The position numbers and the translations under genes were made by a program. A stretch of DNA of 64,000 bases from Escherichia coli (GTDB lineage: Bacteria; Pseudomonadota; Gammaproteobacteria; Enterobacterales; Enterobacteriaceae): assembly GCF_017348835.2 (NCBI RefSeq), contig NZ_CP071375.1; one strand, 5' to 3'. Positions 2,233 to 55,561 of the stretch are shown piece after piece (within the stretch, counting starts at the first letter, position 1; each line of letters opens with the position of its first letter). Under the pieces are notes generated by a model. The model saw only the letters and a program-made list of their open reading frames with translations, was not told the origin of the DNA and searched no databases.

Positions 2233-3225
<993 letters not shown>

Positions 3226-37257: not shown

Positions 37258-39243
37258 TTAATTTGGGGTTACGATATTCACCCACAAATCGAAATTATCC
37301 AGACAAGCAATAATTTCTTCCAGTTTCGCGCCATTGCCAATAATTTTGGCTTTCTTCGCTTTTACCAGATCCGCCATTTGGGCTTGTCCGGTCAGCACGG
37401 CGTGCAGATCTTCACGGCTGATGTAGAAAGAGGCGTCAGCTTGGGATTGCAGCGTTTTACGGTAGTTAAGCACGCTATCGTTCAGCGTCAGGTTGAGGTT
37501 ATCGCCGTTGCTCATATTGAAGTTCAGGCTGATATTTTTACCCGCGGCTTTCGCGCTATCGAGGCGAACGGACATAAAGTCGAACAGCATTTCGACCGAC
37601 ATTCCGCGAATGGTGTCCGGGGAACCGGTGGTGCCGTGGCTGAACTTATGCACCCCTTCGCGCAGCTCTTTCGCGCCGGTCAGGTAGAAACCGCGCCATG
37701 TGGCGGACTCGGCCTGATAGCCCAGCTGTTCAAAGTTATTCGCTTGCAGATTCTTCGCGACCTGGTCACCCGGGTTGGCGGCAATCACCTGTTTCAGCAG
37801 TTCTGCCGACCAGCGGTAATCACCTTGCTTGTTCGCTTCTTGCGCCAGGTTGATGACACGGGCAGAACCGCCCAGCGCTTTCACGTAACGTTTGCCCATC
37901 TCTACCTGACCATACGGATGCAGGTTAGCCGGGGTACCGTCGTAATAGCCAAGATAGAAGTTATACACCGCGCGGGCGTTGTGGCTGACAGAACCGTAAT
38001 AGCCGCGGCTGGCCCAGTTATTGGCAAGCGCAGGCGGCAGCTTAATCATGTCGCCGATTTCATTCATGGTGTAGCCCTGGTTCGCCAGGTGCAGGGTCTG
38101 GTCGTGAATATACTTGATGGTATCGCGATATTTACCAATATAATCATTGATATGCTTATTGCCCCAGACCGGCCAGGTGTGTGGCATAAACAGCACTTCC
38201 GCGTCGTTACCCCACATATCCAGCGTTTCGTTCAGGTACTCGGTCCACTTGCTGGTATCGCGGGTTTTCGCGCCGCGCAGAGTGTAGAAGTTGTGCAGGG
38301 TATGCGTGGCGTTCTCGGCGGTACACAGGGCTTTCAGGGCCGGAATATAGAAGTGCATTTCGGCTGGCGCTTCGCTACCTGGAGTCATCAGGAAGTCAAA
38401 CTCCAGGCCGTCGATAATCATCTTCTCGCCAGTTCTGACGATAGTTTTAGTCGGTGCAATAATGCTCGGGTCGCCCGTTGCCAGCGTCACGCCAAGGCCA
38501 TTACCCACGTTGCCTTGCGCGTTGTGCGGCAGTAACAGACCGTAAGAGTAGAGCGCACGGCGGCTCATGATGTTACCCGCCAGCACGTTTTCGCTGATGG
38601 CTTCGTCCATAAAGCCAGCAGGGGCAATCACCTGAACTTTGCCGGATTTAACATCGGCTTCAGAGATAATGCCTTTCACGCCACCATAGTGGTCGGTGTG
38701 GCTGTGAGTGTAGATAACGGCAACAATCGGTTTTTGCGGACGATGCTGGAAGTAAAGGTCAAGTGCGGCTTTTGCGGCAGGCGGCGTCACCAGCGGGTCG
38801 ATAACAATAATGCCTTTCTCGCCCTCAACGAACGTAATGTTAGAGATATCCTGGCCGCGCACCTGATACATTTTATCGGTGACTTTGAACAGGCCAGAAA
38901 TACCGTTGATTTGCGACTGACGCCACAGGCTGGGGTTTACGGTTTCCGGCGCTGCGGCATTAATATCAAATTTGTAATCGTCCGCGCGGTAGTAAACTTT
39001 ACCGTTCGCATCACGCAGAATACCTTCATCCAGCAGCGGGGCGATAAATCCACGCTGGGCATCGTCAAAATCCTGACGATCGCTAAACGGTAATGATTTG
39101 GCGTAATTCTGATTAACCTGTTGGGTATATTGAGTGGCGGCTTTCGCTTCCTCTTTCGCGTAAGCGGTATTTACCATCATGCCGCTGACGGCGGTTAACG
39201 CAATAACAATCCGGCTCAAACGGAATAACCGAGAGTTATTCAT
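37258..39243 (-). CDS. yjcS: Putative alkyl/aryl-sulfatase (metallo-beta-lactamase fold)
   Basis: 661 aa from [10 protein letters not shown]; signal peptide; HSHTDH metal-binding motif. Confidence 0.9.
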
Positions 39244-39535
39244 ATAAATCTCCATTTATCATTTATGTCGTAAATATGTAATCCATGCAAAATACGTCAT
39301 TTAAAGCTGGCGTTATCATAATTGGGAAATTGCGACTTTAATAAGTGGAAGTGTGAGCGGAACGCGCCATTTTATTAGGCATTTGTGCTGAAGAGGGAAA
39401 AGTACGCGAATTTATTATCTCTGCAAATAATATGAGGTGTTTTATATATTTATTATATATATTGTACTTCGGCAAATACTGAGCACAATTAATCAATGCA
39501 ACCGGTGTTTTTTATTAAAAAACGTACCGGAGCAA

Positions 39536-39813
39536 TGGGCGGTCATGTCGCTGGCACCGCAGGATTCTGTGTTGCTGTGCCAGCCTTTTATTCATGGTCA
39601 ATGAGTGAGGGGATTGATAAAGAAACCAGGTCGTCAGAGCGCACTGATTATCCGCATTACGCCAGTGAAGTTGCACTGGCTTTTGGTTCACGAGTGGTTG
39701 GCCTCGAACTGGCAAAAATGATTGTGGATGCGTGGCTGGGCGCACAGTACGAAGGTGGTCGTCATCAACAACGCGTGGAGGCGATTACGGCAATAGAGCA
39801 GCGGAGAAATTGA
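39536..39813 (+). pseudogene. rpiB: Ribose-5-phosphate isomerase B remnant: degraded 5' end and an internal in-frame deletion
   Basis: IDKETRSSERTDYPHYASEVALA resembles RpiB residues about 31-53, joined directly to the C-terminal FGSRVVGLELAKMIVDAWLGAQYEGGRHQQRVEAITAIEQRRN; the roughly 54-residue block between them, which holds the catalytic cysteine, is missing. Confidence 0.7.
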
Positions 39814-39881
39814 GATTCATCCACTACTTGCATGGATGAGTAATGACTAATGTGGATAGAGTTTCTTTTTGAGGTTGGCTA

Positions 39882-40211
39882 ATGAAACGCTTTCCGCTAT
39901 TTCTTTTATTCACCCTGCTCACGCTGTCCACCGTTCCGGCCCAGGCCGATATTATCGACGACACCATTGGCAATATTCAGCAGGCGATTAACGATGCTTA
40001 TAACCCTGACCGTGGGCGAGACTATGAAGATTCGCACGACGACGGCTGGCAGCGTGAAGTGAGCGACGATCGGCGCAGACAATATGACGACCGCCGCCGC
40101 CAGTTTGAAGATCGTCGCAGGCAACTGGACGATCGCCAGCGCCAGCTTGATCAGGAGCGTCGGCAGCTGGAGGATGAAGAGCGGAGAATGGAAGATGAGT
40201 ATGGGCGATGA
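39882..40211 (+). CDS. yjdP: Secreted small protein with charged DDRRRQ-type repeats
   Basis: 109-aa ORF; signal peptide MKRFPLFLLFTLLTLSTVPAQA; C-terminus of R/Q/D/E repeats. Confidence 0.85.
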   Translation: MKRFPLFLLFTLLTLSTVPAQADIIDDTIGNIQQAINDAYNPDRGRDYEDSHDDGWQREVSDDRRRQYDDRRRQFEDRRRQLDDRQRQLDQERRQLEDEERRMEDEYGR

Positions 40212-40253
40212 GGTAGGCTAGGGTGAGGGGGCCAGCGCGCACATTCCCTCTCA

Positions 40254-41012
40254 TCACGCCACCCCAATCTCCATCCCATCAAACCCGGCTTCAAACCCCG
40301 ACGGCAGTGCGTTTTCCATCAGCCACGCATCAAACTGGTGGCTGATATGGGTCAGAACCACGCGCGGCGAGCGGATAACCTGATTCAGCGCAAGCACGGT
40401 ATTTAAATCACAGTGATTACGCGGTGCATCCTCGCGCGGCGGGTGGCTGCAATCAATCACCATTACCTGCGGCTGATTATTGCGTAAAAATTTCAGCGTT
40501 TTTTCCGGCAAGCCAGCGGTGTCAGACAGCCACGCCACCCGGCTGTGCGCCGTTTCCAGCAGATAACCGAAGGTCAGTTTTGAGTGGTTGAGCGGCAGGG
40601 GCGTGACCTGCAACCCCTGCAAATCAAACACCACAAACGGTTCTACCGTGTGGCTGAAATCAAGCAGGCCCGGATGTTTAAACAGATCGTCGCAGCCCTG
40701 TTCATCCGGCGGGCCGTAAACCGGGATCGTATCGCCCACGCCCCAGCGCAGCGGAAACAGCCCCTGGACGTGATCCATATGGTAGTGCGTCAGCAAAAAC
40801 TGCTGGAACGATCCGGGCGACCAGCGATCGGCGAGATCGTGCAGCCCGGCGTCGATCAGGGTGATCGCCTCGTTAAACTTCACTACGCCGCTGCACGGCT
40901 GGCGGCGATAGTGCGGCGAGCGCCGCGCTCTGGCGCAGGCCGCGCACTCGCAGCCCCATGCCGGAACGCCCTGTGCGCCGCCGGTGCCGGTGAGCGTGAG
41001 GGTCAGGCTCAT
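40254..41012 (-). CDS. phnP: Phosphoribosyl 1,2-cyclic phosphate phosphodiesterase (metallo-beta-lactamase fold)
   Basis: 252 aa from [18 protein letters not shown] motif. Confidence 0.93.
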
Positions 41013-41013
41013 G

Positions 41014-41448
41014 TTACAGCGCCTTCGTGAAGCGGAAGTGGCTCTGCTCGTAGCCTTCACGCAGGTAAAAACGGTGCGCGTCGTGGCGCTTCACGTTGGT
41101 CGAAAGCTCGGTCATTTCGGCCCCGGCCTGGCGGGCTTCTTCTTCTGCCCACGCTAGCAATTTACTGCCGACGTTCAGGCCGCGCGCCTGCGGCATCACC
41201 ACCAGCTCCTGAATTTCGCCGATCCAGTTGACATGATGCAGATGAAACTGCAAATGCAGGCCGATCATACCGACAACTTCGCCATCCAGCAGCGCCAGAT
41301 GGTAGCGCATGTTTGGGTCACGCAGGTTGGCGTTAAAGCCCACGCGAAACGCGTGATGGTCAAACTCCGCCTGTTTTAGCTCACAAATCAGCGCGTAAAC
41401 CGCGTCGGTGTCGTACTGTGTGGCCGGGCGAAGCTCACAAGCAGGCAT
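41014..41448 (-). CDS. phnO: Aminoalkylphosphonate N-acetyltransferase (GNAT)
   Basis: 144-aa [24 protein letters not shown]... Confidence 0.93.
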
Positions 41449-41992
41449 GGTGTTTCTCCTTCTGATGGATCAGCGTCAGCAGCGTGTCGACCGACTGGCG
41501 CAGGCTGCCGTCATTATTGAGCGTATGGCAATCCTGAGGAGTATAGCGGGCGGCGCGCGCCAGCCGGGCGTTAATTTCACTGGCGTTTTCACGACCACGG
41601 TTTTCCAGGCGCTGGCGCAGGATCTCTGGCGACACCTGTAAGCAGATGGGCAGCAGCGCCGATGCATAGCGTGCCCGCGCCTGTGGCAGATGGGCGCGTG
41701 AGCCGTTGACCAGCACGTCGAATCCGGCGTGCAGCCAGAGGTCTATCTCGACGCCGACGCCATAATACAGGCCGTTGGCGTGCCAGCTTAAGGCCAGTAG
41801 GTTCTGCCCCGCGCGGGTAAAAAACTCCTGCTCGCTCAGGGCGATATGGTTTTCGATTCCGGCGCTGGCGTCGCGCGTGATGTAGCGATGTGCCACCAGT
41901 AGCTGAGTTTGTTCCCGCAGGCGGAGTTCCGCCAGCAGGCTATCTTTCCCGGAGCCGGACGGCCCCATTAACCAAATCAGTTTTCCCATCAT
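41435..41992 (-). CDS. phnN: Ribose 1,5-bisphosphate phosphokinase
   Basis: 185-aa ORF with P-loop GPSGSGKDS. Confidence 0.93.
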
Positions 41993-43128
41993 CAGAACAC
42001 CCTTTTACCCTGACGCCAGACGTGGTCGATATGAATGTGATTGCCCTTGCGATGCGCCAGCACCAGGTCCGCGCGTTTGCCCTCGCCAATCACCCCGCGA
42101 TCCTGGAGATTAAGCGCCTGCGCTGGATTTTTAGTCACCAGCTTCACCGCCTGCGGCAGCGTAAAGCGGTTGCTCTCGTCATCGGCGACGCGGAACGCCG
42201 CATCCAGCAGGCTGGCGGGGTAGTAGTCGGAAGAGAGGATATCCAGCAGGCCAAGCTGCGCCAGTTCACTGGCCGCCACGTTGCCGGAGTGCGAGCCGCC
42301 GCGCACGATATTTGGTGCACCCATCAGCACGTTCATGCCATGCTTGCGCGAGGCTTCCGCCGCTTCGAACGTAGTGGGAAATTCGGCGATCACACTGCCA
42401 AGCTGGTGGGATTCGGCAACGTGGGCGTGGGTGGCGTCATCGTGGCTGGCGAGCGCAATGTGTCGCGCGCGGCACATTGCGGCGATGGATTCGCGATTTG
42501 GCTGCGACCAGCGTGCAGCAAGCGCCAGCTGTTCCTCTTCATACTGCTGCATCTGCGCATCAGTAAGCGAGTATTTACCCTGATAATACTCGCGATACTT
42601 CTCGCGATTGGCGAACTGGCGCTGGCCCGGCGAGTGGTCCATTAGCGACACCAGCGTCACCGGCTCGCGCAGCACCAGTTTTTCAAACAGCGGCAGCGTG
42701 GTGTGATGCGGCAGTTCGCAGCGCAGATGCAGACGGTGCTCGGCGCGGTTGACGCCGCGTTTCTGCGTCTCTTCGATGGCGTTGATCATCTTCTCCAGAT
42801 TCTCCAGCCGATCGCCGCCGTCGCGCACGTCGCCAATTGCCACGGCGTCCAGTACGGTGGTGATGCCGCTCGCCACCATCAGCGCGTCGTGGCTGCTCAT
42901 CGCCGAGTGGGCAGGCCAGTCAACTTTCGGGCGCGGGGTGAAGAATTTATCCAGATTATCGGTATGCAGCTCAATCAGCCCCGGCAGCAGCCAGCCGCCT
43001 TCGCCGTCCATCGCCTCCGGCAGGCGGCTCTGGCTTTCGGCAAAGGCGCGGATTTCGCCATCCTGCATCTTCAGCGAACCGTGTACGACTTCGTTTTCCA
43101 GCACCAGTTTAACGTTATTGATAATCAT
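41992..43128 (-). CDS. phnM: Amidohydrolase-family triphosphate diphosphohydrolase
   Basis: 378-aa ORF; HTD metal-binding motif near N-terminus. Confidence 0.93.
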
Positions 43129-43805
43129 GCAGAGGCTCCCATTGGGTGCAGGCGGTCGGCGACATCATTGCGTACGGCTTCGTCATGGAAGATGCCGACG
43201 ATGGCTGCGCCACGGGCTTTGGCTTCGCGGATCAGTTCCACTACGGCGGCGCTGTTTTTAGCGTCCAGCGAGGCGGTAGGTTCGTCGAGCAGCAGAATGG
43301 GATAATCGACGATAAAGCCGCGGGCGATGTTGACGCGCTGCTGTTCGCCGCCGGAGAAGGTCGATGGTGCCAGGTGCCACAGGCGTTCCGGCACGTTCAG
43401 GCGGGTGAGCAGACGCGCGGCTTTAGCGGCGCAGACTTCACGCGGAACGCCGGTATCGAGCAGCGGTTGCATCACCACTTCCAGTGCTGAGATACGCGGG
43501 ATGACGCGCAGAAACTGGCTCACCCAGCCGACGGTGGTTTTGCGGATTTCCACCACTTTGCGCGCTGGCGCAGTGACCAGGTCAACCCATTCGTCGCCGT
43601 GTTTGATCTGGATTTTCCCTTCGTCGGGCAGATAGTTGGCGTACAGCGAGCGCAGCAGGGTTGATTTGCCGCTGCCGGAGTGGCCGTGGAGCACCACGCA
43701 TTCGCCCGCGTTGACGGTGAGCGAGGCACGTTGTAAGACGGGCAGGCGCACGCCGTTTTGCTGGTGCAGGATGAAGGTTTTACTGACGTTTTGTACGTTA
43801 ATCAT
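43125..43805 (-). CDS. phnL: C-P lyase ABC-type ATPase subunit
   Basis: 226 aa from [11 protein letters not shown]; Walker [10 protein letters not shown]; the ORF-track upstream extension covers a REP and is not coding. Confidence 0.92.
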
Positions 43806-43825
43806 TTTTCGCCTCGTGGTTCGGG

Positions 43826-43912
<87 letters not shown>

Positions 43913-43915
43913 GGC

Positions 43916-44674
43916 TCAATTCTGCAAAACCGATGACACCAGCAGCTGGGTGTACGGATGATGCGGGTCGTCGAGCACGCGGTCGGTTAACCCACTCTCC
44001 ACCACCTGCCCCTGCTTCATCACCAGCAAACGGTCCGCCAGCAGGCGGGCGACGCCTAAATCATGGGTGACAATCACCACCGCCAGGTTCAGCTCCACCA
44101 CCAGGCCGCGCAGCAGGTCGAGCAGGAGCGCCTGTACCGACACATCCAGCCCGCCGGTTGGCTCGTCCATAAACACCAGCTTCGGATGCGTCACCAGGTT
44201 GCGGGCAATCTGCAAACGTTGCTGCATGCCGCCGGAAAAGGTGGTCGGCAGGTCGTCGATACGGTTGGCGGGAATTTCCACCTCTTCCAGCCACTTCTGC
44301 GCGGTGGCGCGAATATCGCCGTAATGACGCGCCCCGGTCGCCATCAGCCGCTCGCCGATATTGCCGCCTGCCGAGACCTGGCGGCGCAGGCCGTCGAGCG
44401 GATGCTGATGCACCACGCCCCATTCGGTGCGCAGCAGGCGACGGCGGTCGGCCTCGCTCATGCCATAGAGGGAACGGTTTTCATAGTGAATCTCCCCCTG
44501 CTGCGGCGTCAGACGCGCGGAAATTGATTTCAGCAGCGTGGTCTTCCCGGAGCCGGATTCCCCGACAATGCCCAGCACTTCCCCCGGCCATAAATCAAAA
44601 GAGACATCGCTAAAGCCTTTGCCCGGCGCGTAAAGGTGGGTCAGGTTATTGACCGAAAGTAACGGTTGATTCAT
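43916..44674 (-). CDS. phnK: C-P lyase ABC-type ATPase subunit
   Basis: 252 aa from [15 protein letters not shown]; Walker [10 protein letters not shown]. Confidence 0.93.
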
Positions 44675-45516
44675 TGGCTTTTCGCCTCGCTCTGTTGGCG
44701 GCAATAATCGGTATCGGAGCAGACAAACATGCGGTTTCCGGCGTCATCCAGCACCACTTCATCAAGATAGCTGTGGGTCGATCCGCAGATGGCGCACGGC
44801 TCATCCCACTGCTGAACGGTGAACGGGTGATCCTCGAAATCGAGGCTTTCCACGCGGGTAAACGGCGGCACCGCATAGATGCGCTTCTCACGCCCCGCGC
44901 CGAACAGTTGCAGGGCGGGCATCATGTCCATTTTCGGGTTATCGAATTTCGGGATCGGCGACGGGTCCATTACGTAGCGCCCGTTCACCTTCACCGGATA
45001 GGCGTAGGTGGTGGCGATATGACCGAAGCGGGCGATATCTTCATACAGCTTCACCTGCATCACGCCGTACTCCTCCAGCGCGTGCATGGTGCGGGTTTCC
45101 GTTTCGCGCGGCTCGATAAAGCGCAGCGGTTCGGGGATCGGCACCTGGAAGATAATTATCTGATCTTCGGTCAGCGGCGTTTCGGGGATGCGGTGACGCG
45201 TCTGGATAACCGTCGCATCGTCCGTACATTCCGTGGTGTTCACCCCGGTCACGCGCTTAAAGAAGTTGCGAATCGATACGGCGTTGGTGGTGTCATCCGC
45301 GCCCTGGTCAATCACCTTCAACACGTCGCTTTCGCCAATCACGCTGGCGGTAAGCTGTATGCCGCCGGTTCCCCAGCCGTACGGCATTGGCATCTCGCGC
45401 CCGCCAAACGGTACCTGATAACCGGGGATCGCCACCGCTTTTAAGATGGCGCGGCGGATCATGCGTTTGGTCTGCTCGTCGAGGTAGGCAAAGTTGTAGC
45501 CGCTCAGATTAGCCAT
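44671..45516 (-). CDS. phnJ: Alpha-D-ribose 1-methylphosphonate 5-phosphate C-P lyase (radical SAM-like)
   Basis: 281 aa from MANLSGYNFAYLDEQTKR; C-terminal CAICGS...CSDTDYC cysteine motif. Confidence 0.93.
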   Translation of the reverse strand: MANLSGYNFAYLDEQTKRMIRRAILKAVAIPGYQVPFGGREMPMPYGWGTGGIQLTASVIGESDVLKVIDQGADDTTNAVSIRNFFKRVTGVNTTECTDDATVIQTRHRIPETPLTEDQIIIFQVPIPEPLRFIEPRETETRTMHALEEYGVMQVKLYEDIARFGHIATTYAYPVKVNGRYVMDPSPIPKFDNPKMDMMPALQLFGAGREKRIYAVPPFTRVESLDFEDHPFTVQQWDEPCAICGSTHSYLDEVVLDDAGNRMFVCSDTDYCRQQSEAKSQ

Positions 45517-46567
45517 GGTTCTGCTCCTGTTGCGGACGTTTGAGTAGCTCCAGTTCGGCCTGGAAATCGACGTAGTGCGGGAGTTTGAGGTGCGAGACAA
45601 AGCCTGCGGCTTCGACGTTGTCGGCATGCGCCAGCACGAACTCTTCATCCTGCGCCGGGCCTGTCGCGTGCTCGCCGTACTCCGGAGCCTGCAACGCACG
45701 ATCGACCAGCGCCATCGCTTTGCGCTCGCTCATGCCGAACACCAGCCCGTAGCCGCGCGTGAAATGCGGCGGTTCATCTGGAGGGTCGATAAAACCGTTG
45801 ACCATTTCACACTCGGTCATCAGCAGTTCGCCGACGTTCACCGCAAATCCCAGCTCTTCCGGCACAATCGACACGTCGATGTAACCACTGCGGATCTCGC
45901 CCGCGAACGGGTGATTGCGTCCGTAACCACGCTGGGTGGAGTAGGCCAGCGCCAGCAAATAGCCTTCGTCGCCGCGCATGAGCTGTTGCAGGCGGGAAGA
46001 ACGTGAGCAGGGGTAAACCGGCGGCGTGCGGGTGATGTCATCCGGCTGTGCGCCGCTATCCTCTTCAAACTTCGCCAGCCCCTGACGCGCCAGCAGGCTG
46101 AAAACGTGCGGCGACGGCTGTTGTTCGCTGTCGGCGGTGGTCAGCGTCGGCGCTTCGCCGTTTGCCAGCAGGGTGAAATCGAGCAGGCGATGGGTGTAGT
46201 CGTAGGTTGGGCCAAGCAGTTGGCCGCCGGGAATGTCTTTATAAACGGCGGAGATACGCCGTTCGAGACGCATCCCGGTGGTGTCGAGCGGCTCGCTTAC
46301 CGCGAGTTTCGCCAGCGTGGTGCGGTAGGCGCGCAGCAGGAAAATTGCTTCGACGTTATCGCCGCTGGCCTGTTTCAGCGCCAGCGCCGCCAGTTCGCGG
46401 TCGGCAATGCCGCCTTCGGTCATCACGCGATCTACCGCAAGATTAAGCTGCTGTTCAATCTGGGCGACGCTCAGTTCAGGCAAATCGGTATCGCCCCGGC
46501 GTCGGCTCTCTTGCAGGGCGTGGGCGGCATCGATCGCCTTTTCGCCCCCTTTCACGGCAACGTACAT
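45509..46567 (-). CDS. phnI: C-P lyase core complex subunit PhnI
   Basis: 354 aa from [18 protein letters not shown]; start overlaps phnH stop. Confidence 0.93.
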   Translation of the reverse strand: MYVAVKGGEKAIDAAHALQESRRRGDTDLPELSVAQIEQQLNLAVDRVMTEGGIADRELAALALKQASGDNVEAIFLLRAYRTTLAKLAVSEPLDTTGMRLERRISAVYKDIPGGQLLGPTYDYTHRLLDFTLLANGEAPTLTTADSEQQPSPHVFSLLARQGLAKFEEDSGAQPDDITRTPPVYPCSRSSRLQQLMRGDEGYLLALAYSTQRGYGRNHPFAGEIRSGYIDVSIVPEELGFAVNVGELLMTECEMVNGFIDPPDEPPHFTRGYGLVFGMSERKAMALVDRALQAPEYGEHATGPAQDEEFVLAHADNVEAAGFVSHLKLPHYVDFQAELELLKRPQQEQNHG

Positions 46568-47151
46568 CAGCACACCTCCACATGAGTGGTTCGGGGGATA
46601 GCCAGCAGTCGCTCGCCGCAGGTCAGGATCAGGTCGATGCCGAGCGGGAACGGGTGCGGGCGCTCGGTGAGTTCGTGCAAAATGCACTCCGGCAGCTGCG
46701 GGGCGATCATTCGTTCTTCGGCAATGCCCGCGCCGGTGAGACGCAACATGCGCCCGCCGCTCAGGCTGGCGACCTGTAAAATCAGCGTTGCGCCCGCTTC
46801 CGGCGCAACGGCGGTGCCGGTGGAAAGGGCGTTAAGCTGTTCGCTGGAAATCGCCTCATCCGTTACCGCGAAGGTCGCCTGTTCCGGCTGGCTGACCAGC
46901 GGCGCGTTGGTATGAAAACGCAGGCTCTGGCTGACGATATCGTTACTTAATGGCGCGGAAAGCCACACCGGCGTGTCGTTATCGGCCAGCGTCAGCAGCA
47001 CGCTGGTGGTGGCGATATTCAGCGGCTGCCAGCCGCGTTTGAGCTGATGCAGGGCGACAATCACGCCCGGCTCGCTCATGGCCTTTAACAGGCGACGAAA
47101 ACTGTGCTGGGCATCCTGCACAGGAAGCATAAAAGCGGTTTCCAGGGTCAT
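46567..47151 (-). CDS. phnH: C-P lyase core complex subunit PhnH
   Basis: 194-aa [32 protein letters not shown]... Confidence 0.93.
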
Positions 47152-47600
47152 GCGTTGTCTCCGCGAACCATCGTAAAGAAGTCGACCCGGCTGGCGTTCA
47201 CTTCGGCCTGGCGTGCGGCAATGCGTGCCATACGGTCAGCGTCCAGCGGGGCAATAAGGGTTTCTGATAAGTTTTGAAAGTGGCGAGATTGCTGCATCAG
47301 CGCGTCGATCAGCGCGCAGCGTTCGGCGTGCTGTTTGTCGCGCCCCAGCACCCAGCTGTAGCCGAGCGTGCCGTCAGTCAGGCGTACTGCGGCGCGGGTA
47401 AGCGTGGCGTCGCCGGCAAAAAAGCGTTCGCCGGTGCCGCCCATCCGCGCCTGAATCTGTACCAGGCCAGTTTCAGCGGCGCGGATCACCTCATAGTCGG
47501 CGGTGATGTTCAGCGCGTTCAGGCAGGCTGCCAGTTCTGCCGGTTGGCTGTGTGCCAGTACGGACATCCAGTGCTGGCGGGTCGCGGTATCTGCGTGCAT
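47148..47600 (-). CDS. phnG: C-P lyase core complex subunit PhnG
   Basis: 150-aa [28 protein letters not shown]... Confidence 0.93.
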
Positions 47601-48326
47601 TCAGTGCTCCATAGTAAATTCAATCATGTCGGCGCGCGTCAGGCTGACGGAGTACTCCGCCGGGCTGCTTTCACCGTCACGGTGGTTAAGGGTGCGCACG
47701 CACAGCAGCGGCGACATATTCGGGATTTCAAGACGCTGGCACTCTTTGGCCTGGGCGCGGCGGGCGCTGATCCGCGTCTGGCTGCGGCGCAGTGCAATCC
47801 CCGTTTGCTCGCGCAGAAAATCGTGCAGCGAGCCGCTGTCGAAGCGTTGCAGCGTCGGCCAGAGGGTGAGGTCCGCGAAGTAGTGGTCGATTAAACAGAG
47901 CGCGACGCCGTTGACCCGGCGCAGGGTGCGCAGGTGGATAACGTTCTCGCCCTCGGCGATACCCAGCGCGTCTGCCACGTGACCGGAGGCCGGGCGCAGC
48001 ACAGACAGCAGTTTTTCGCTGGTGGGATGGCTCCCCTGATCCAGCAGGTTCTGGCTAAAACGCGCCTGGGCGTTGAGCGGGTAATCGAACGGGCGCATCA
48101 GCACCAGCACGCCGACGCCCTGACGGCGCTGTACCCAGCCTTTTTCCACCAGTTGGTCGATGGCGCGGCGCAGGGTGTGGCGGTTCACCTCAAAGCGCGC
48201 TGCCAGTTGCTGCTCGGCGGGAAGATAGTCGCCGCAGCGGTAGTGTTGACGAAGCTCCTGCTCAAGTTTTGCGGCTATCTCCTGATAGCGTGTTGGGTAG
48301 CTGGTCGGATGTGTAGACAAGTGCAT
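47601..48326 (-). CDS. phnF: GntR-family transcriptional regulator of the phn operon
   Basis: 241 aa from MHLSTHPTSYPTRYQEIAAKLEQEL; N-terminal winged HTH. Confidence 0.92.
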   Translation of the reverse strand: MHLSTHPTSYPTRYQEIAAKLEQELRQHYRCGDYLPAEQQLAARFEVNRHTLRRAIDQLVEKGWVQRRQGVGVLVLMRPFDYPLNAQARFSQNLLDQGSHPTSEKLLSVLRPASGHVADALGIAEGENVIHLRTLRRVNGVALCLIDHYFADLTLWPTLQRFDSGSLHDFLREQTGIALRRSQTRISARRAQAKECQRLEIPNMSPLLCVRTLNHRDGESSPAEYSVSLTRADMIEFTMEH

Positions 48327-48346
48327 AGATATCAATGCCTCGCTTA

Positions 48347-49126
48347 TCAGATAAAGTGCTTACGCAACCGTTGAGAGAGGAAATCCAGCAGGCTGACCGT
48401 GACGATAATCAGCACCATCAGGGCGCAGGTTTGCTGGAACTGGAAACCGCGAATCGCTTCCCACAGGGTGACGCCGATCCCGCCCGCGCCGACCATGCCG
48501 ACGACGGTCGCCGAGCGGACGTTGGATTCGAAGCGATAGAGGGAGTAGGAGATCAGCAGCGGCATCACCTGTGGCAGCACGCCGTAGAGGATCTCTTCCA
48601 GCTTGTTAGCGCCGGTGGCGCGAATGCCTTCCACCGGGCCGGGTTCGATCGCTTCCACCGCTTCAGAAAGCAGTTTGGAGAGCACGCCGGTGGTGTGGAT
48701 AAACAGCGCCAGCACGCCAGCGAACGGGCCGAGGCCGACGGCGACCACGAACAGCATGGCGAAGACCATTTCGTTAATGGCGCGGCAGGCGTCCATCAGG
48801 CGGCGAACGGGCTGGTAAACCCACCACGGCACCAGGTTTTCGGCGCTCATCAGGCCGAAGGGGATGGAGAGAACCACCGCCAGCGCGGTGCCCCAGACGG
48901 CGATTTGCAGCGTGACGAGCATTTCGGTGAGGTAATCCTGCCACTGGCTGAAATCAGGCGGGAAGAAGTCGGCGGCGAAAGTCGCCATGTTGCCGCCGTC
49001 TTTAATCAGCGTGAGCGGGGCCATTTCCGCGCCCTGCCACGAGACGACCAACACGGCGAGAACAATGGCCCAGCTCAGAAGCGAGAACCAGCTGCGCTTG
49101 GGTGGGGCGATGGTGATGGTTTGCAT
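48347..49126 (-). CDS. phnE: Phosphonate ABC transporter permease, apparently intact
   Basis: Uninterrupted 259 aa from [22 protein letters not shown]...; six hydrophobic segments. Confidence 0.9.
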
Positions 49127-49140
49127 GTTTGGCTCCGGTC

Positions 49141-49231
49141 TGTAGGCCGGATAAGGTGCTTGCACCGCATCCGGCATCAACGCCTGCACATTGTCGGATG
49201 CGACGCCGGGGCGTCTTATCCGACCTACGAT
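49141..49231. repeat. REP pair in the phnD-phnE spacer
   Basis: gtaggccggataaggtgcttgcaccgcatccggca and cggatgcgacgccggggcgtcttatccgacctac. Confidence 0.85.
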
Positions 49232-50248
49232 TTACTGCACCGCTTTACTCACCGAACTCATCGCGCTTAAAGCGTTGTTCAGGCGGTCCAGGTCATCCAG
49301 CTGCGCCTGAATCTCGGTGGTTTTTGCCAGCTTGTCCTGCTCATTCAGTCCTTTATTGCTTTTCACGCCCTGCATCTCTTTAAACAGCGCGAGCTGGCGA
49401 ATCGGCACCAGTTGCAGGTCGCTGGAAGCGCGGAACGGCGCCCAGCCCAGGCGTTCCAGCACCGCTTTTTCTTCCGGCGTTTTGCCGTAGTTCATAAAGA
49501 AGTCGTAGATCTTGTCTTTGGTGGTTTCGGAAAGGTTTTTACGCCAGACGATCGGATCGCCTGGGATCAGCGGCGACTTCCAGATCACTTTCAGTTCTTT
49601 CAACTTCTCCGGCGCGGAGGTTTTCAGCTTGTCGAGGTTTTCGGTGTTGTTAGTGGCAACATCCACCTGCTTGTTGGCGACGGCCAGCGCGTTGGTTTCA
49701 TGCCCGGCGTTGACGGTGCGCTTGAAGTCGCTGGCGGAGATATTGTTTTTGGCGAAGACGTAGTAGCCGGGGACGAGGAAGCCAGAGGTGGAGTTAGGAT
49801 CGCCATTGCCGAAGGTGAGATCTTTCCGCTTCGCCAGCAGATCGTTCAGGTTGTTGATCGGACTGTCTTTGTTGACGATCAACACGCTCCAGTAACCCGG
49901 CGATCCGTCCGCCGCGACGGTCTGAGCGAAGACCTGACCGTTGGCGCGATCCACTGCTTCCATCGCCGACAGGTTGCCGTACCAGGCGATATCCACTTTA
50001 TTGAAGCGCATCCCCTGGATAATGCCCGCGTAATCCGGGGCAAAGAAGGCGTTGACCTTCACGCCCAGCTTCTTCTCCATATCCTGTAAGAACGGCGTCC
50101 ATTGCGGTTTCAGGTTTTGCTGTGATTCCGTTGAAATAATGCCGAAATTCAGCGCCTTTTCCTGCTCTTCGGCGTGCGCCGGGGTTAACAGGGTGCTGAG
50201 GCTGAACATGCTGGTGAAGGCCAGCGAGGCAATTATCTTAGCGTTCAT
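49232..50248 (-). CDS. phnD: Phosphonate ABC transporter periplasmic binding protein
   Basis: 338-aa ORF with signal peptide MNAKIIASLAFTSMFSLSTLLTPAHA. Confidence 0.95.
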   Translation of the reverse strand: MNAKIIASLAFTSMFSLSTLLTPAHAEEQEKALNFGIISTESQQNLKPQWTPFLQDMEKKLGVKVNAFFAPDYAGIIQGMRFNKVDIAWYGNLSAMEAVDRANGQVFAQTVAADGSPGYWSVLIVNKDSPINNLNDLLAKRKDLTFGNGDPNSTSGFLVPGYYVFAKNNISASDFKRTVNAGHETNALAVANKQVDVATNNTENLDKLKTSAPEKLKELKVIWKSPLIPGDPIVWRKNLSETTKDKIYDFFMNYGKTPEEKAVLERLGWAPFRASSDLQLVPIRQLALFKEMQGVKSNKGLNEQDKLAKTTEIQAQLDDLDRLNNALSAMSSVSKAVQ

Positions 50249-50272
50249 TCGTTTTCCTCAATGATGGGGATG

Positions 50273-51061
50273 TCAGGCAGCTTTCGCGTTCTCTTCGACG
50301 CGGTTAATGCTGCGGTAGAGATGGTCAAAACGTTCGTTATCAAACTGTTGGCTGCTGCCGTCGTAGAAGACGTGCCCCTGACGAAGGGCGACGATGCGTT
50401 CGCAGTAGCGCAGGGCGTAATCCACCTGATGCAGCGTGACGACCACGGTGATGCCGTCGTTCTGATTGATGTCGCGCAGGGTGTCCATCACGATGCGGGC
50501 GGATTCCGGGTCCAGCGAGGCGATCGGTTCGTCCGCCAGAATCACCTTCGCCTGCTGCATCAGCGCGCGGGCAATCGCCACACGCTGCTGCTGTCCGCCG
50601 GAGAGGGTGGAAACGCGCTGATGGGCAAAATGCACCATGCCAACGCGGGTCAGCGCCTGTAACGCGCGCTGTTTCTGCTCGCGGGTGAACCAACTAAAAC
50701 AGGTGCGCCAGAACGGCGTGCTGCCGAGCGCGCCAATCAGCACGTTCTCCAGTACGCTTAGGCGATTCACCAGGTTGAATTGTTGGAAGATGTAGCCGGT
50801 GTTGGCGCGGCTTTTGCGGATATCGCGCGCCAGGCGGCCATTTTGCTGGACGGTGCGGCCCAGCAGCTCGACGCGGCATTCTGGCTTTTTATCGCCGACA
50901 ATCAGGCCGCTTAAGTGACGTAAAAGGGTGGATTTGCCGGAACCGGACGGCCCAAGCAGAGCCACCATTTCACCATGATGGATATTCAGATCAACCGCGT
51001 GCAGCGCCTGATGCTGATTGAAGGTTTTGCTCAGTTGTTCGACGCGGATAATCGTTTGCAT
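50273..51061 (-). CDS. phnC: Phosphonate ABC transporter ATP-binding protein
   Basis: 262-aa ORF; Walker [13 protein letters not shown] signature LSGGQQQR. Confidence 0.95.
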
Positions 51062-51100
51062 GATGCAGCCTCCCTAAAAAAGTGGCTCCATCGTGGCGGA

Positions 51101-51138
51101 TTATTGTGACGATTTGGTTAATTAAAAGTGACTAACAG
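51101..51138 (-). promoter_or_regulatory. Pho box (PhoB binding site) of the phnC promoter
   Basis: Minus-strand CTGTTAG-tcac-TTTTAAT-taac-CAAATCG-tcac: 7-bp direct repeats at 11-bp periodicity just upstream of phnC. Confidence 0.7.
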
Positions 51139-51192
51139 ATGAAGAGTTAACGGGAATTCGATGACAGTGCGGGAGGGCGGGCCTCCCGCGGA

Positions 51193-51636
51193 TTATTGCG
51201 TTGGTTGTTGTTTGACGACATTAATCATCCACGGTACGCCAAATTTATCGGTGACTTTGCCGAAGCCATGCGCCCAGAAAGTTTCCTGCCAGGCCATTTC
51301 GATTTTTCCGTTAGCTGCAAGGTTATCAAACCAGCGTTTTCCTTCTTCGACCTGTTGCGAATCGAGCACCAGCGTAAAACCGGAGTAGCTGGCTTTTCCT
51401 GACGGTATAGCATCGCTCATCATGATGTCGCTTCCGGCAATACGCACGTTGGCATGAGCGATGGCAGTATCGGGAAATTGCATTCCGGAAGGGCAGCCTT
51501 CGGCGCTGTCCTGCGCTGATTTTGGCATTTCGCCGAAGCTGATTTTATAGAGCAGTTCCGCGCCCAACGTACGTTGATAATAAGCAATTGCGTCGGCACA
51601 GTTACCGGCAAAAGAGAGGTAGGGACTTAACGGCAT
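51193..51636 (-). CDS. yjdN: Glyoxalase/VOC-like protein (formerly phnB)
   Basis: 147-aa ORF MPLSPYLSFAGNCADAIAYYQRTLGAELL... Confidence 0.88.
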   Translation of the reverse strand: MPLSPYLSFAGNCADAIAYYQRTLGAELLYKISFGEMPKSAQDSAEGCPSGMQFPDTAIAHANVRIAGSDIMMSDAIPSGKASYSGFTLVLDSQQVEEGKRWFDNLAANGKIEMAWQETFWAHGFGKVTDKFGVPWMINVVKQQPTQ

Positions 51637-51699
51637 GATGGTGACCTCAGTTAAGAGAAGCCAGTTAAGTGTAGTTCGAAATTTATACAGATGAGAGGG

Positions 51700-52578
<879 letters not shown>

Positions 52579-52595
52579 TACTGATCACAATACAA

Positions 52596-52931
52596 TCAGT
52601 TCTTTTTCACAAACTCAGATTTCAGTTTCATCGGACCAAAACCGTCGATTTTGCAATCGATGTTATGGTCGCCTTCAACCAGGCGGATGTTTTTCACTTT
52701 GGTGCCAATTTTCAGCATCGAAGAGCTACCTTTCACCTTCAGATCTTTAATGATGGTAACGCTGTCGCCGTCAGCCAGCAGATTGCCGTTAGCATCTTTA
52801 ACGATCAGCTCGTCGCTTTCCTGTGCAGGTTCTGCGTCGTTCCATTCGTAGGCACATTCCGGGCAGATGTACATGCCGTTATCTTCGTAGGTGTATTCGG
52901 AGTTGCATTTTGGGCAGTGTGGTAATGACAT
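52596..52931 (-). CDS. yjdM: Zinc-ribbon protein YjdM (formerly phnA)
   Basis: 111 aa from [30 protein letters not shown]. Confidence 0.9.
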
Positions 52932-53332
52932 GTGGATTTCCTCAAAAGTCAGCAGGGCAAAAGCGCCAAAAAACGGCAGATTGCCGAAAAAGGCCGCAAT
53001 TATACACAAAATCCCTGAGTTTGTCGGGGGTACTGCTGATTTTAGACGACGATCGTTTTCATTTGAAAGGAAACGCAAAAAGAAAATAATCTTTTTGCCT
53101 CCATTTATTATTTAAGATAAGGTTAATGCTCTACTTGTTCTTTTTTTTATTCACATGATATTTTTATCTTTCTGACGTTTTAAACGTATCGGAAGATGTT
53201 ATTTATTCTAATAAAAAACAACACTCTAAATATAAAATTATTTCTTGCAGTAATTATAAAAGCCGAAAACAGAACTCAAAAACAATCTGGCTAAATAAAA
53301 GTAATAAAATTTGCTTTAAGGAAGAATTTTCT

Positions 53333-55561
53333 ATGTACACACAGACCCTGTATGAGTTAAGTCAGGAGGCTGAACGCCTGTTACAGCTTTCTCGCCAACA
53401 GTTGCAGTTACTGGAAAAAATGCCTCTCTCTGTACCCGGAGACGATGCGCCACAACTGGCTTTACCCTGGAGTCAGCCTAATATCGCCGAACGTCACGCG
53501 ATGCTGAATAATGAGTTGCGTAAAATTTCCCGACTGGAAATGGTGCTGGCAATTGTCGGTACCATGAAAGCAGGGAAATCAACCACCATTAATGCCATTG
53601 TTGGTACGGAGGTTCTGCCTAATCGCAATCGCCCAATGACTGCCCTGCCGACGCTTATTCGCCATACACCCGGGCAAAAAGAACCGGTACTGCATTTTTC
53701 ACATGTCGCGCCAATCGATTGTTTAATTCAACAATTACAACAACGCCTGCGTGATTGCGATATTAAGCATCTGACCGATGTGCTGGAAATAGATAAAGAT
53801 ATGCGTGCGCTTATGCAGCGGATCGAAAATGGCGTCGCTTTCGAAAAATATTATCTGGGTGCCCAGCCTATTTTTCATTGTCTGAAAAGTTTGAATGATT
53901 TGGTGCGACTGGCGAAGGCGCTGGACGTCGATTTTCCTTTTTCTGCTTACGCCGCCATTGAGCATATTCCCGTGATTGAAGTGGAGTTTGTCCATCTGGC
54001 GGGGCTGGAGAGTTATCCCGGTCAGTTGACGTTACTGGATACCCCCGGGCCAAATGAAGCCGGGCAACCGCATCTGCAAAAAATGCTTAACCAGCAGCTG
54101 GCACGCGCCTCGGCGGTACTGGCGGTGCTGGATTATACGCAACTGAAATCGATCTCCGATGAAGAGGTCCGTGAGGCGATTTTGGCGGTGGGGCAATCGG
54201 TGCCGCTGTATGTGCTGGTCAATAAGTTCGATCAACAGGATCGTAACAGTGACGACGCCGACCAGGTGCGGGCACTGATTTCCGGGACGCTGATGAAAGG
54301 CTGTATTACGCCACAGCAGATATTTCCGGTGTCGTCGATGTGGGGCTACCTGGCGAATCGGGCGCGCCATGAGTTAGCCAACAACGGTAAGTTACCAGCG
54401 CCAGAGCAACAACGCTGGGTGGAAGATTTTGCCCATGCCGCGCTCGGCAGGCGCTGGCGTCATGCCGATCTGGCGGACCTCGAACATATTCGTCATGCTG
54501 CCGATCAGTTGTGGGAAGATTCGCTGTTCGCCCAGCCAATTCAGGCGCTGCTTCATGCCGCTTACGCTAACGCCTCGTTGTATGCTCTGCGATCTGCCGC
54601 GCATAAACTGTTGAATTACGCGCAGCAGGCGCGGGAATACCTGGATTTTCGTGCGCACGGGTTAAACGTCGCTTGTGAACAATTGCGGCAAAATATCCAT
54701 CAGGTCGAAGAAAGTTTGCAGCTATTGCAACTCAATCAGGCGCAGGTGAGCGGCGAGATTAAACATGAAATCGAGCTGGCCCTGACCTCCGCCAACCACT
54801 TTCTGCGTCAACAGCAAGATGCGCTGAATGCGCAGTTTGCCGCCTTGTTTCAGGATGATTCGGAGCCGTTAAGCGAGATTCGTACCCGCTGTGAGACACT
54901 GTTACAGACGGCGCAGAACACCATCAGTCGCGACTTTACGCTGCGTTTTGCCGAGCTGGAATCCACCCTTTGCCGGGTGTTAACCGATGTTATTCGCCCC
55001 ATTGAGCAACAAGTCAAAATGGAATTGAGCGAGTCAGGGTTTCGTCCTGGGTTTCATTTTCCTGTTTTTCACGGCGTAGTTCCCCACTTCAACACTCGCC
55101 AGCTGTTCAGTGAAGTCATTTCGCGCCAGGAAGCAACGGACGAGCAGAGCACGCGTTTAGGCGTTGTGCGTGAGACTTTTTCGCGCTGGTTGAATCAGCC
55201 CGACTGGGGACGGGGAAATGAGAAATCCCCGACAGAAACGGTTGATTACAGTGCGTTGCAACGAGCATTAAGCGAAGAGGTCGATCTTTATTGCCAACAA
55301 ATGGCTAAAGTTCTGGCAGAGCAGGTCGATGAATCTGTTACGGCAGGCATGAATACTTTTTTCGCTGAGTTCGCTTCATGTTTGACGGAATTACAGACGC
55401 GTTTACGCGAAAGTCTGGCTCTGCGTCAACAAAATGAATCGGTGGTCAGGCTGATGCAGCAGCAATTGCAGCAGACTGTGATGACTCACGGCTGGATTTA
55501 CACCGACGCCCAGCTGTTACGCGATGATATTCAAACACTTTTCACGGCAGAACGATATTGA
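53333..55561 (+). CDS. crfC: Dynamin-like GTPase (clamp-binding sister replication fork colocalization protein)
   Basis: 742-aa ORF; P-loop GTMKAGKST near residue 75; long coiled-coil C-terminus; AT-rich upstream region. Confidence 0.9.
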   Translation: MYTQTLYELSQEAERLLQLSRQQLQLLEKMPLSVPGDDAPQLALPWSQPNIAERHAMLNNELRKISRLEMVLAIVGTMKAGKSTTINAIVGTEVLPNRNRPMTALPTLIRHTPGQKEPVLHFSHVAPIDCLIQQLQQRLRDCDIKHLTDVLEIDKDMRALMQRIENGVAFEKYYLGAQPIFHCLKSLNDLVRLAKALDVDFPFSAYAAIEHIPVIEVEFVHLAGLESYPGQLTLLDTPGPNEAGQPHLQKMLNQQLARASAVLAVLDYTQLKSISDEEVREAILAVGQSVPLYVLVNKFDQQDRNSDDADQVRALISGTLMKGCITPQQIFPVSSMWGYLANRARHELANNGKLPAPEQQRWVEDFAHAALGRRWRHADLADLEHIRHAADQLWEDSLFAQPIQALLHAAYANASLYALRSAAHKLLNYAQQAREYLDFRAHGLNVACEQLRQNIHQVEESLQLLQLNQAQVSGEIKHEIELALTSANHFLRQQQDALNAQFAALFQDDSEPLSEIRTRCETLLQTAQNTISRDFTLRFAELESTLCRVLTDVIRPIEQQVKMELSESGFRPGFHFPVFHGVVPHFNTRQLFSEVISRQEATDEQSTRLGVVRETFSRWLNQPDWGRGNEKSPTETVDYSALQRALSEEVDLYCQQMAKVLAEQVDESVTAGMNTFFAEFASCLTELQTRLRESLALRQQNESVVRLMQQQLQQTVMTHGWIYTDAQLLRDDIQTLFTAERY

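Follow-up and report, generated by a model that had tools for sequence, protein, structure and literature searches.

The phnCDEFGHIJKLMNOP locus in the 64,000-nt stretch of Escherichia coli chromosome analysed here (hereafter, the window) raises the question of what is done by the two spacers that carry repetitive extragenic palindromic (REP) sequences, one between phnD and phnE and the other between phnK and phnL, in an operon whose genes otherwise overlap or nearly touch. The sequence examined, a 6.6-kb region of the window, is 100% identical to that of E. coli PE164 (NZ_CP114128.1), in which phnC to phnP are annotated by the Prokaryotic Genome Annotation Pipeline (PGAP). All 14 phn open reading frames (ORFs) were re-derived and found intact, with ATG starts and without internal stops, and they are co-oriented in the canonical order on the minus strand, transcribed from 51061 to 40254. 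The locus is an ordinary E. coli phosphonate operon, encoding carbon-phosphorus (C-P) lyase, and is already well characterised. The explanation that we find reasonably probable is that of an ordinary Pho-induced operon in which overlapping genes are coupled, the D/E spacer is a structured polarity element and the K/L spacer is a gap colonised by repeats.

The genes are joined as follows, all coordinates being on the minus strand and the assignments resting on the annotation of the identical record together with clean ORFs unless stated. The operon begins with phnC (50273..51061), the ABC transporter ATPase, followed after a gap of 24 nt by phnD (49232..50248), the periplasmic phosphonate-binding protein, and after a further gap of 105 nt by phnE (48347..49126), the permease of 259 aa, intact as judged by annotation and comparison with K-12. 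After 20 nt comes phnF (47601..48326), a GntR-type regulator that abuts phnG (47148..47600) with 0 nt between them (TGAATG). In the core of the operon, phnG and phnH (46567..47151) overlap by 4 nt (ATGA, 47148-47151), phnH and phnI (45509..46567) by 1 nt (TGATG, at 46567), phnI and phnJ (44671..45516), the C-P lyase, by 8 nt (45509-45516), and phnJ and phnK (43916..44674), the ABC-type ATPase subunit of the core complex (annotation, ORF and PMC9947105), by 4 nt (ATGA, 44671-44674). Past a gap of 110 nt, phnL (43125..43805), a second ABC-type ATPase, overlaps phnM (41992..43128) by 4 nt (ATGA, 43125-43128), phnM overlaps phnN (41435..41992) by 1 nt (TGATG, at 41992), phnN overlaps phnO (41014..41448) by 14 nt (41435-41448), and phnO is separated by 1 nt (TAAcATG) from phnP (40254..41012), the last gene, which is assigned by annotation.

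Eight of the 13 junctions overlap or abut (gap <=0), with O/P missing by a single nucleotide, and the only long gaps are D/E and K/L. The initial annotation had listed overlaps of 1-14 nt or abutting genes, with H/I at 46567, 4 nt at G/H and 14 nt at N/O, and had confined sizeable gaps to the two REP spacers; the re-derived junctions agree on both counts, all gaps other than the 105 nt of D/E and the 110 nt of K/L being <=24 nt. Its ATGA-type overlap of phnM and phnN at 41992 is corrected here to a 1-nt TGATG overlap. A GGAG/GAGG-type Shine-Dalgarno motif was found 7-14 nt 5′ of every phn start, within the preceding gene where genes overlap. Overlapping stop and start codons combined with a Shine-Dalgarno motif in the upstream gene are the anatomy expected of translational coupling. 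The tight coupling originally claimed for the operon is, to that extent, borne out by its overlaps and by their conservation in 80 species, while coupling itself is something that we infer from this arrangement. The pattern is unremarkable for E. coli, since other operons of the window show similar junctions, those of -4, -1 and -8 included: nrfABCDEFG has overlaps at 4 of its 6 junctions, and mdtNOP, eptA-basR-pmrB, rdcB-crfC and yjcH-actP have junctions of -4, -1 or 0.

The conservation of these junctions was examined in 80 species of the gamma-, alpha- and beta-proteobacteria, in loci that were anchored on PhnJ and searched for the Phn orthologues by tblastn. The fraction of species with a gap <=0 was 0.57 at F/G, 0.71 at G/H, 0.85 at H/I, 0.81 at I/J, 0.57 at J/K, 0.81 at L/M, 0.64 at M/N and 0.91 at N/O. 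Overlaps kept across 80 species are therefore not accidental. At K/L the fraction was 0.12, with a median gap of +22 nt, and at D/E it was 0.00, with a median of 69.5 nt and 96% of gaps at >=40 nt. The D/E junction is the one at which a long spacer recurs, and the structure of that spacer recurs with it. Compared with shuffled sequences, D/E spacers reached z<-2 in 72% of 40 species (median -27.6 kcal/mol), while the same threshold was passed by 3% of spacers at C/D, 5% at J/K, 38% at E/F and 46% at K/L, the last value referring to the 24 K/L spacers of >=30 nt. Only 1 of the 40 D/E structures from other species carried a T-rich tail, and in 34 of 40 species no related copy of the D/E sequence was found within the surrounding ~20 kb. 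A structured spacer past the binding-protein gene is, by this comparison, kept across the proteobacteria whichever sequence makes the hairpin.

In several Pantoea, Vibrio, Marinomonas and Mangrovibacter loci (L017-L019, L024, L026, L030), the best PhnE match lay ~1 kb past phnD, which suggests that these loci may carry two tandem phnE-like permease genes.

In the window, the D/E spacer (49127..49231, minus strand, 105 nt) is a bacterial interspersed mosaic element (BIME) made of two inverted REPs without a U-tract, as identified by sequence, fold and its match to the Rfam family naRNA4. The first REP in the mRNA (49193..49228, minus strand; GTAGGTCGGATAAGACGCCCCGGCGTCGCATCCGAC) starts 3 nt past the phnD stop codon, and the second, inverted REP (49142..49175, minus strand; GCCGGATGCGGTGCAAGCACCTTATCCGGCCTAC) is followed by the phnE Shine-Dalgarno motif GGAG. 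The two units are predicted to form a composite hairpin of -50.5 kcal/mol (z -5.0), and the spacer passes the gathering score of naRNA4, the REP325 unit, with 69.1 vs 59.5 bits. The K/L spacer (43806..43915, minus strand, 110 nt) is also a BIME without a U-tract, with the phnL Shine-Dalgarno motif GAGG 3′ of it. Its first REP in the mRNA (43876..43909, minus strand; GCCGGATGCGGCGTAAACGCCTTATCCGGCCTAC) starts 6 nt past the phnK stop codon, its second is inverted (43827..43862, minus strand; GTAGGTCGGATAAGACGCATCAGCGTCGCATCCGAC), and the predicted composite hairpin reaches -55.5 kcal/mol (z -5.6). The 24-nt C/D and 20-nt E/F spacers are predicted to be unstructured.

The four REP units of the phn spacers, all intergenic, are ~35-nt imperfect palindromes of the GCCGGATG...CTAC-type consensus, and matches to the REP consensus in the window numbered 11 and 2, vs 0 in shuffles. 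In each E. coli genome the 6.6-kb query had matches at 22 places (median), and queries containing REPs at 22-27 (medians); these many genomic matches arise because of the REPs in the query. An Rfam scan of 39000-53500 returned naRNA4/REP-type matches only, plus one match at chance level. A consensus scan found no intrinsic terminator (G+C-rich hairpin plus U-tract) in the D/E or K/L spacer, and the REPs are not followed by a T-run.

Longer ORFs in the program-made list were considered and rejected. In one of them phnL starts at a TTG at 43919, which would overlap the phnK stop codon as TTGA, translate the BIME and give a 264-aa ORF; this start has no Shine-Dalgarno motif, homologues start at the ATG, and in the boxC-type allele the frame does not stay open. 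The open phnL frame through the whole BIME (43806-43919) is accordingly judged to be coincidental.

Both first REPs lie inside 15 nt of the upstream stop codon (3 nt for phnD, 6 nt for phnK), and this placement bears on an effect opposite to that of a stabiliser. In such a model, ribosomes would stall at the REP hairpin and the mRNA would be cleaved, with a resulting fall of PhnD and PhnK. According to the summary given in PMC12306157, REPs <16 nt from a stop codon cause ribosome stalling and lower translation of the upstream gene, and both phn spacers fall inside that distance. Cells normally require more of a binding protein than of its partners, however, and the hairpins conserved at D/E in other species would suit a stabiliser just as well. 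We regard this down-regulation of the upstream genes as improbable, and it would be compatible with, rather than exclusive of, a structured polarity spacer at D/E.

The spacers differ among strains of E. coli. The K/L BIME allele is present in 4841 of 5426 genomes, and a 177-nt K/L spacer of boxC-like palindromes occupies the junction in 543 genomes (~10% of complete E. coli). At D/E the BIME allele is present in 3876 of the 5426. Most other genomes, roughly one strain in four, have a boxC-like spacer there, with a length of 64, 125 (strain 042) or 256 nt. Two unrelated repeat families, REP/BIME and boxC-like, therefore occupy the same two phn sites within this species (examples, L082-L085). 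The variation extends to other genera, with REP-like units at D/E or K/L in Citrobacter, Cedecea, Enterobacter and Pluralibacter, and boxC-like palindromes (CCCTCTCCC/GGGAGAGGG/GGGTGAGGG) at D/E in Kluyvera, Leclercia and Enterobacter asburiae. Where relatives lack repeats, the K/L gap measures ~9-25 nt, with just 9 nt in Leclercia, Citrobacter sp. FP75, Hafnia and Cedecea neteri. The absence of an overlap at K/L is conserved, and palindromic repeats have established themselves there only sporadically, in some lineages.

This polymorphism is what would be expected if the repeats were neutral passengers, that is, if REP/BIME and boxC-like palindromes were selfish or neutral elements that persisted only at non-overlapping junctions and marked permissive gaps without regulating anything. 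Spacer content and length vary in E. coli and in the Enterobacteriaceae, relatives without repeats make do with K/L gaps of 9 nt, K/L is mostly short and unstructured in other taxa, and the reported effects of REPs are inconsistent, all of which agrees with passengers and makes them a serious rival, especially at K/L. The D/E junction fits this account less well, as its hairpin is stable in most species (72% of 40), mostly without nearby copies and unlike the similarly sized C/D spacer. Across the genome, tandem gene pairs separated by REPs also tend to express the upstream gene more strongly, the median log upstream/downstream ratio being 0.96 vs -0.09 for controls, albeit with large variance (10.64898/2026.03.23.713779). 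Taken over both sites, we consider neutral passengers a tentative possibility. The same alleles could be read in the opposite sense, namely that D/E, and to a lesser degree K/L, has been selected for any strong hairpin, unrelated palindrome families (REP/BIME, boxC-like and species-specific REPs) being recruited and swapped as interchangeable polarity modules, which we consider rather doubtful.

The ordinary coupled operon with a polarity spacer at D/E, which we prefer, would work in the following way. Transcription of phnCDEFGHIJKLMNOP would yield a single Pho-induced mRNA, and at the overlapping or abutting junctions, ribosomes ending one cistron would begin the next, an arrangement that would keep production of the PhnGHIJ(K) subunits, and of the enzymes L-M-N-O(-P), in step. 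The D/E element would be a conserved, structured and terminator-less spacer directly past the binding-protein gene, with the structure supplied by a BIME or by boxC-like palindromes. Its hairpin could block 3′-to-5′ exonucleases, leaving a stable phnCD message, and/or bring about partial Rho-dependent attenuation of read-through, and the outcome in either case would be PhnC and PhnD at levels above those of PhnE and all downstream products. K/L is the only junction of the G-N block at which other species usually lack an overlap, a short unstructured gap with a Shine-Dalgarno motif being the norm. Palindromic repeats would have settled in this permissive gap in E. coli and in scattered lineages, and whatever they do there is probably of minor, secondary importance: phnLMNOP would be subject to further polarity, and intermediates of phnC-K decay would gain a protected 3′ end.

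Published expression data touch on this model at several points. Under phosphate starvation, one phnC-P transcript was reported, with coverage 'varying/decreasing along the operon', and both the D/E and K/L REP spacers are internal to it (PMC3734233). In a phoB knock-out at low phosphate, only phnC (log2 -3.2) and phnD (-2.05) were significantly PhoB-dependent, the genes from phnE to phnH having too few reads for the test (PMC7657598), a pattern that fits, if weakly, a drop past phnD.

The weakly expressed operon has also been assembled in pieces, and this bears on whether K/L contains an internal promoter that would give an independent phnLMNOP transcript, making the spacer a transcription-unit boundary and not an RNA element. 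In the older K-12 coordinate version, position 4315785 would fall within the K/L spacer. In weakly expressing samples, sub-transcripts phnGHIJK and phnLMNOP were assembled, that of phnLMNOP having its 5′ end at 4315785, for which a -10-like motif is listed (PMC3734233), and an internal promoter would account for this end. The minus strand of the spacer yielded no sigma-70-like site, however, and in the consensus scan none of the phn spacers had promoter-like sites above chance, regional matches being likewise at chance level. Expression in that sample was very low, multi-mapping REP reads break assemblies, and the induced operon was assembled as one full transcript (PMC3734233). An internal promoter at K/L is, on this evidence, very unlikely.

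The initial annotation had proposed that the two REP spacers are breakpoints between the transporter, regulator, core lyase and accessory blocks of the operon, and this is partly supported. The K/L spacer stands exactly between phnGHIJK and phnLMNOP, where the published assemblies also break. The D/E spacer, on the other hand, lies inside the transporter block, between the genes for the binding protein and the permease, and the two remaining borders carry no such element, as the 20-nt E/F spacer between transporter and regulator is without a REP, and regulator and core are tightly joined at the abutting F/G junction. Moreover, it is the repeats that give K/L and D/E their length, so that an argument for breakpoints from gap length is partly circular.

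Several observations weigh against the reading of the locus that we prefer. The choice of start codon is uncertain, since in 22 of 78 loci phnL could also begin in frame at the phnK stop codon; given this uncertainty, K/L is uncoupled in ~67-88% of species, and the view that it is universally uncoupled was softened. The K/L spacer is unstructured in most species. Cryo-electron microscopy of Phn(GHIJKL)2 shows PhnK and PhnL dimers bound together at 2:2 (PMC9947105), and with the two subunits bound together in the complex, no stoichiometric step is needed at K/L. The assembly breaks at REPs may be multi-mapping artefacts, and the PhoB dependence was measured in K-12, whose phnE is a pseudogene, in a culture with weak induction, so that the hints from published phn RNA sequencing are weak and suggestive only. 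Reported REP effects are variable and context-dependent (10.64898/2026.03.23.713779), and a search of the literature found no experiment on the phn REPs themselves. Finally, the polymorphism of both spacers in length (64-256 nt) and repeat family would argue against a finely tuned element at either site.

The architecture of the operon is textbook, known biology with little meaning beyond annotation, and the gain from its description is a modest, comparative one. The repeat alleles of E. coli do offer a natural series for studying REP-type tuning in operons. If palindrome families are indeed exchanged as polarity modules, the reading held above to be rather doubtful, the natural alleles of 64, 105, 125 and 256 nt would give heritably different PhnCD : PhnE-P ratios and differing phosphonate-use phenotypes.

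The operon of the window matches those of K-12 and B in genes, order, strand and junction geometry. Relative to K-12 MG1655, the 105-nt D/E spacer is identical and the 110-nt K/L spacer has one substitution; phnE is a frameshifted pseudogene in K-12 and intact in the window strain, and PhnI has 352 aa in the window vs 354 aa in K-12, owing to a 6-nt indel. Versions of the 6.6-kb region with ~97% identity are present in 5378 of 5426 complete E. coli genomes, and the allele of the window is rare, with 10 records at >=99% identity and 1031 at 90-95%, a rarity that suggests a divergent or recombinant segment. Downstream of the operon, an RpiB-family gene (39496-39813) encodes 105 aa, vs 149 aa for K-12 rpiB, and adjoins yjcS (37258-39255), with no als genes annotated between the two; the allose operon appears, from this arrangement, to be absent or truncated in the window strain. 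Elsewhere in the window, aphA (~2512-3225) is a pseudogene with an internal stop in the annotation of the matching record.

Known systems offer comparisons for both features of the operon. Coupling through overlapping stop and start codons (ATGA, TGATG) is familiar from trpE-trpD, trpB-trpA and many operons encoding complexes, and the phn junctions share such overlaps with the trp type, their sizes of 1, 4, 8 and 14 nt being in no way distinctive. For the spacers, REP-mediated differential expression was reportedly described at malE-malF and hisJ-hisQ by Newbury, Higgins and Stern in 1987-88. Like these, the D/E spacer has a REP pair directly past a binding-protein gene, before the gene for a membrane component and without a U-tract; unlike them, it is replaced in roughly one strain in four by palindromes that are not REPs but boxC-like.

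The third system, REP325, is present in the window itself. The array lies just upstream of the phn operon, at 51701-52581 on the minus strand, between the co-oriented genes yjdN (51193-51636) and yjdM (52596-52931), and consists of nine tandem ~100-bp units that match Rfam naRNA4 with 97-111 bits; the yjdM-yjdN gap is 959 nt, vs 657 nt in K-12, equivalent to three extra units. REP325 shares REP units with the phn spacers, the first K/L REP being identical to the repeated unit of the array at 51748-52481. A preprint (Harris et al. 2026, 10.64898/2026.03.23.713779) shows that it attenuates yjdN, through termination that is partial and in part Rho-dependent, and that it stabilises the mRNA of yjdM. 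The D/E spacer most likely acts, by analogy, like the malE-malF, hisJ-hisQ and REP325 elements, and a regulatory role of K/L is possible and less well supported. The arrays differ in size, however, as the REP325 of K-12 comprises 12 palindromic units and that of the window nine two-unit repeats, while the phn spacers have two units each, and a weaker effect than that of REP325 would therefore be expected of them.

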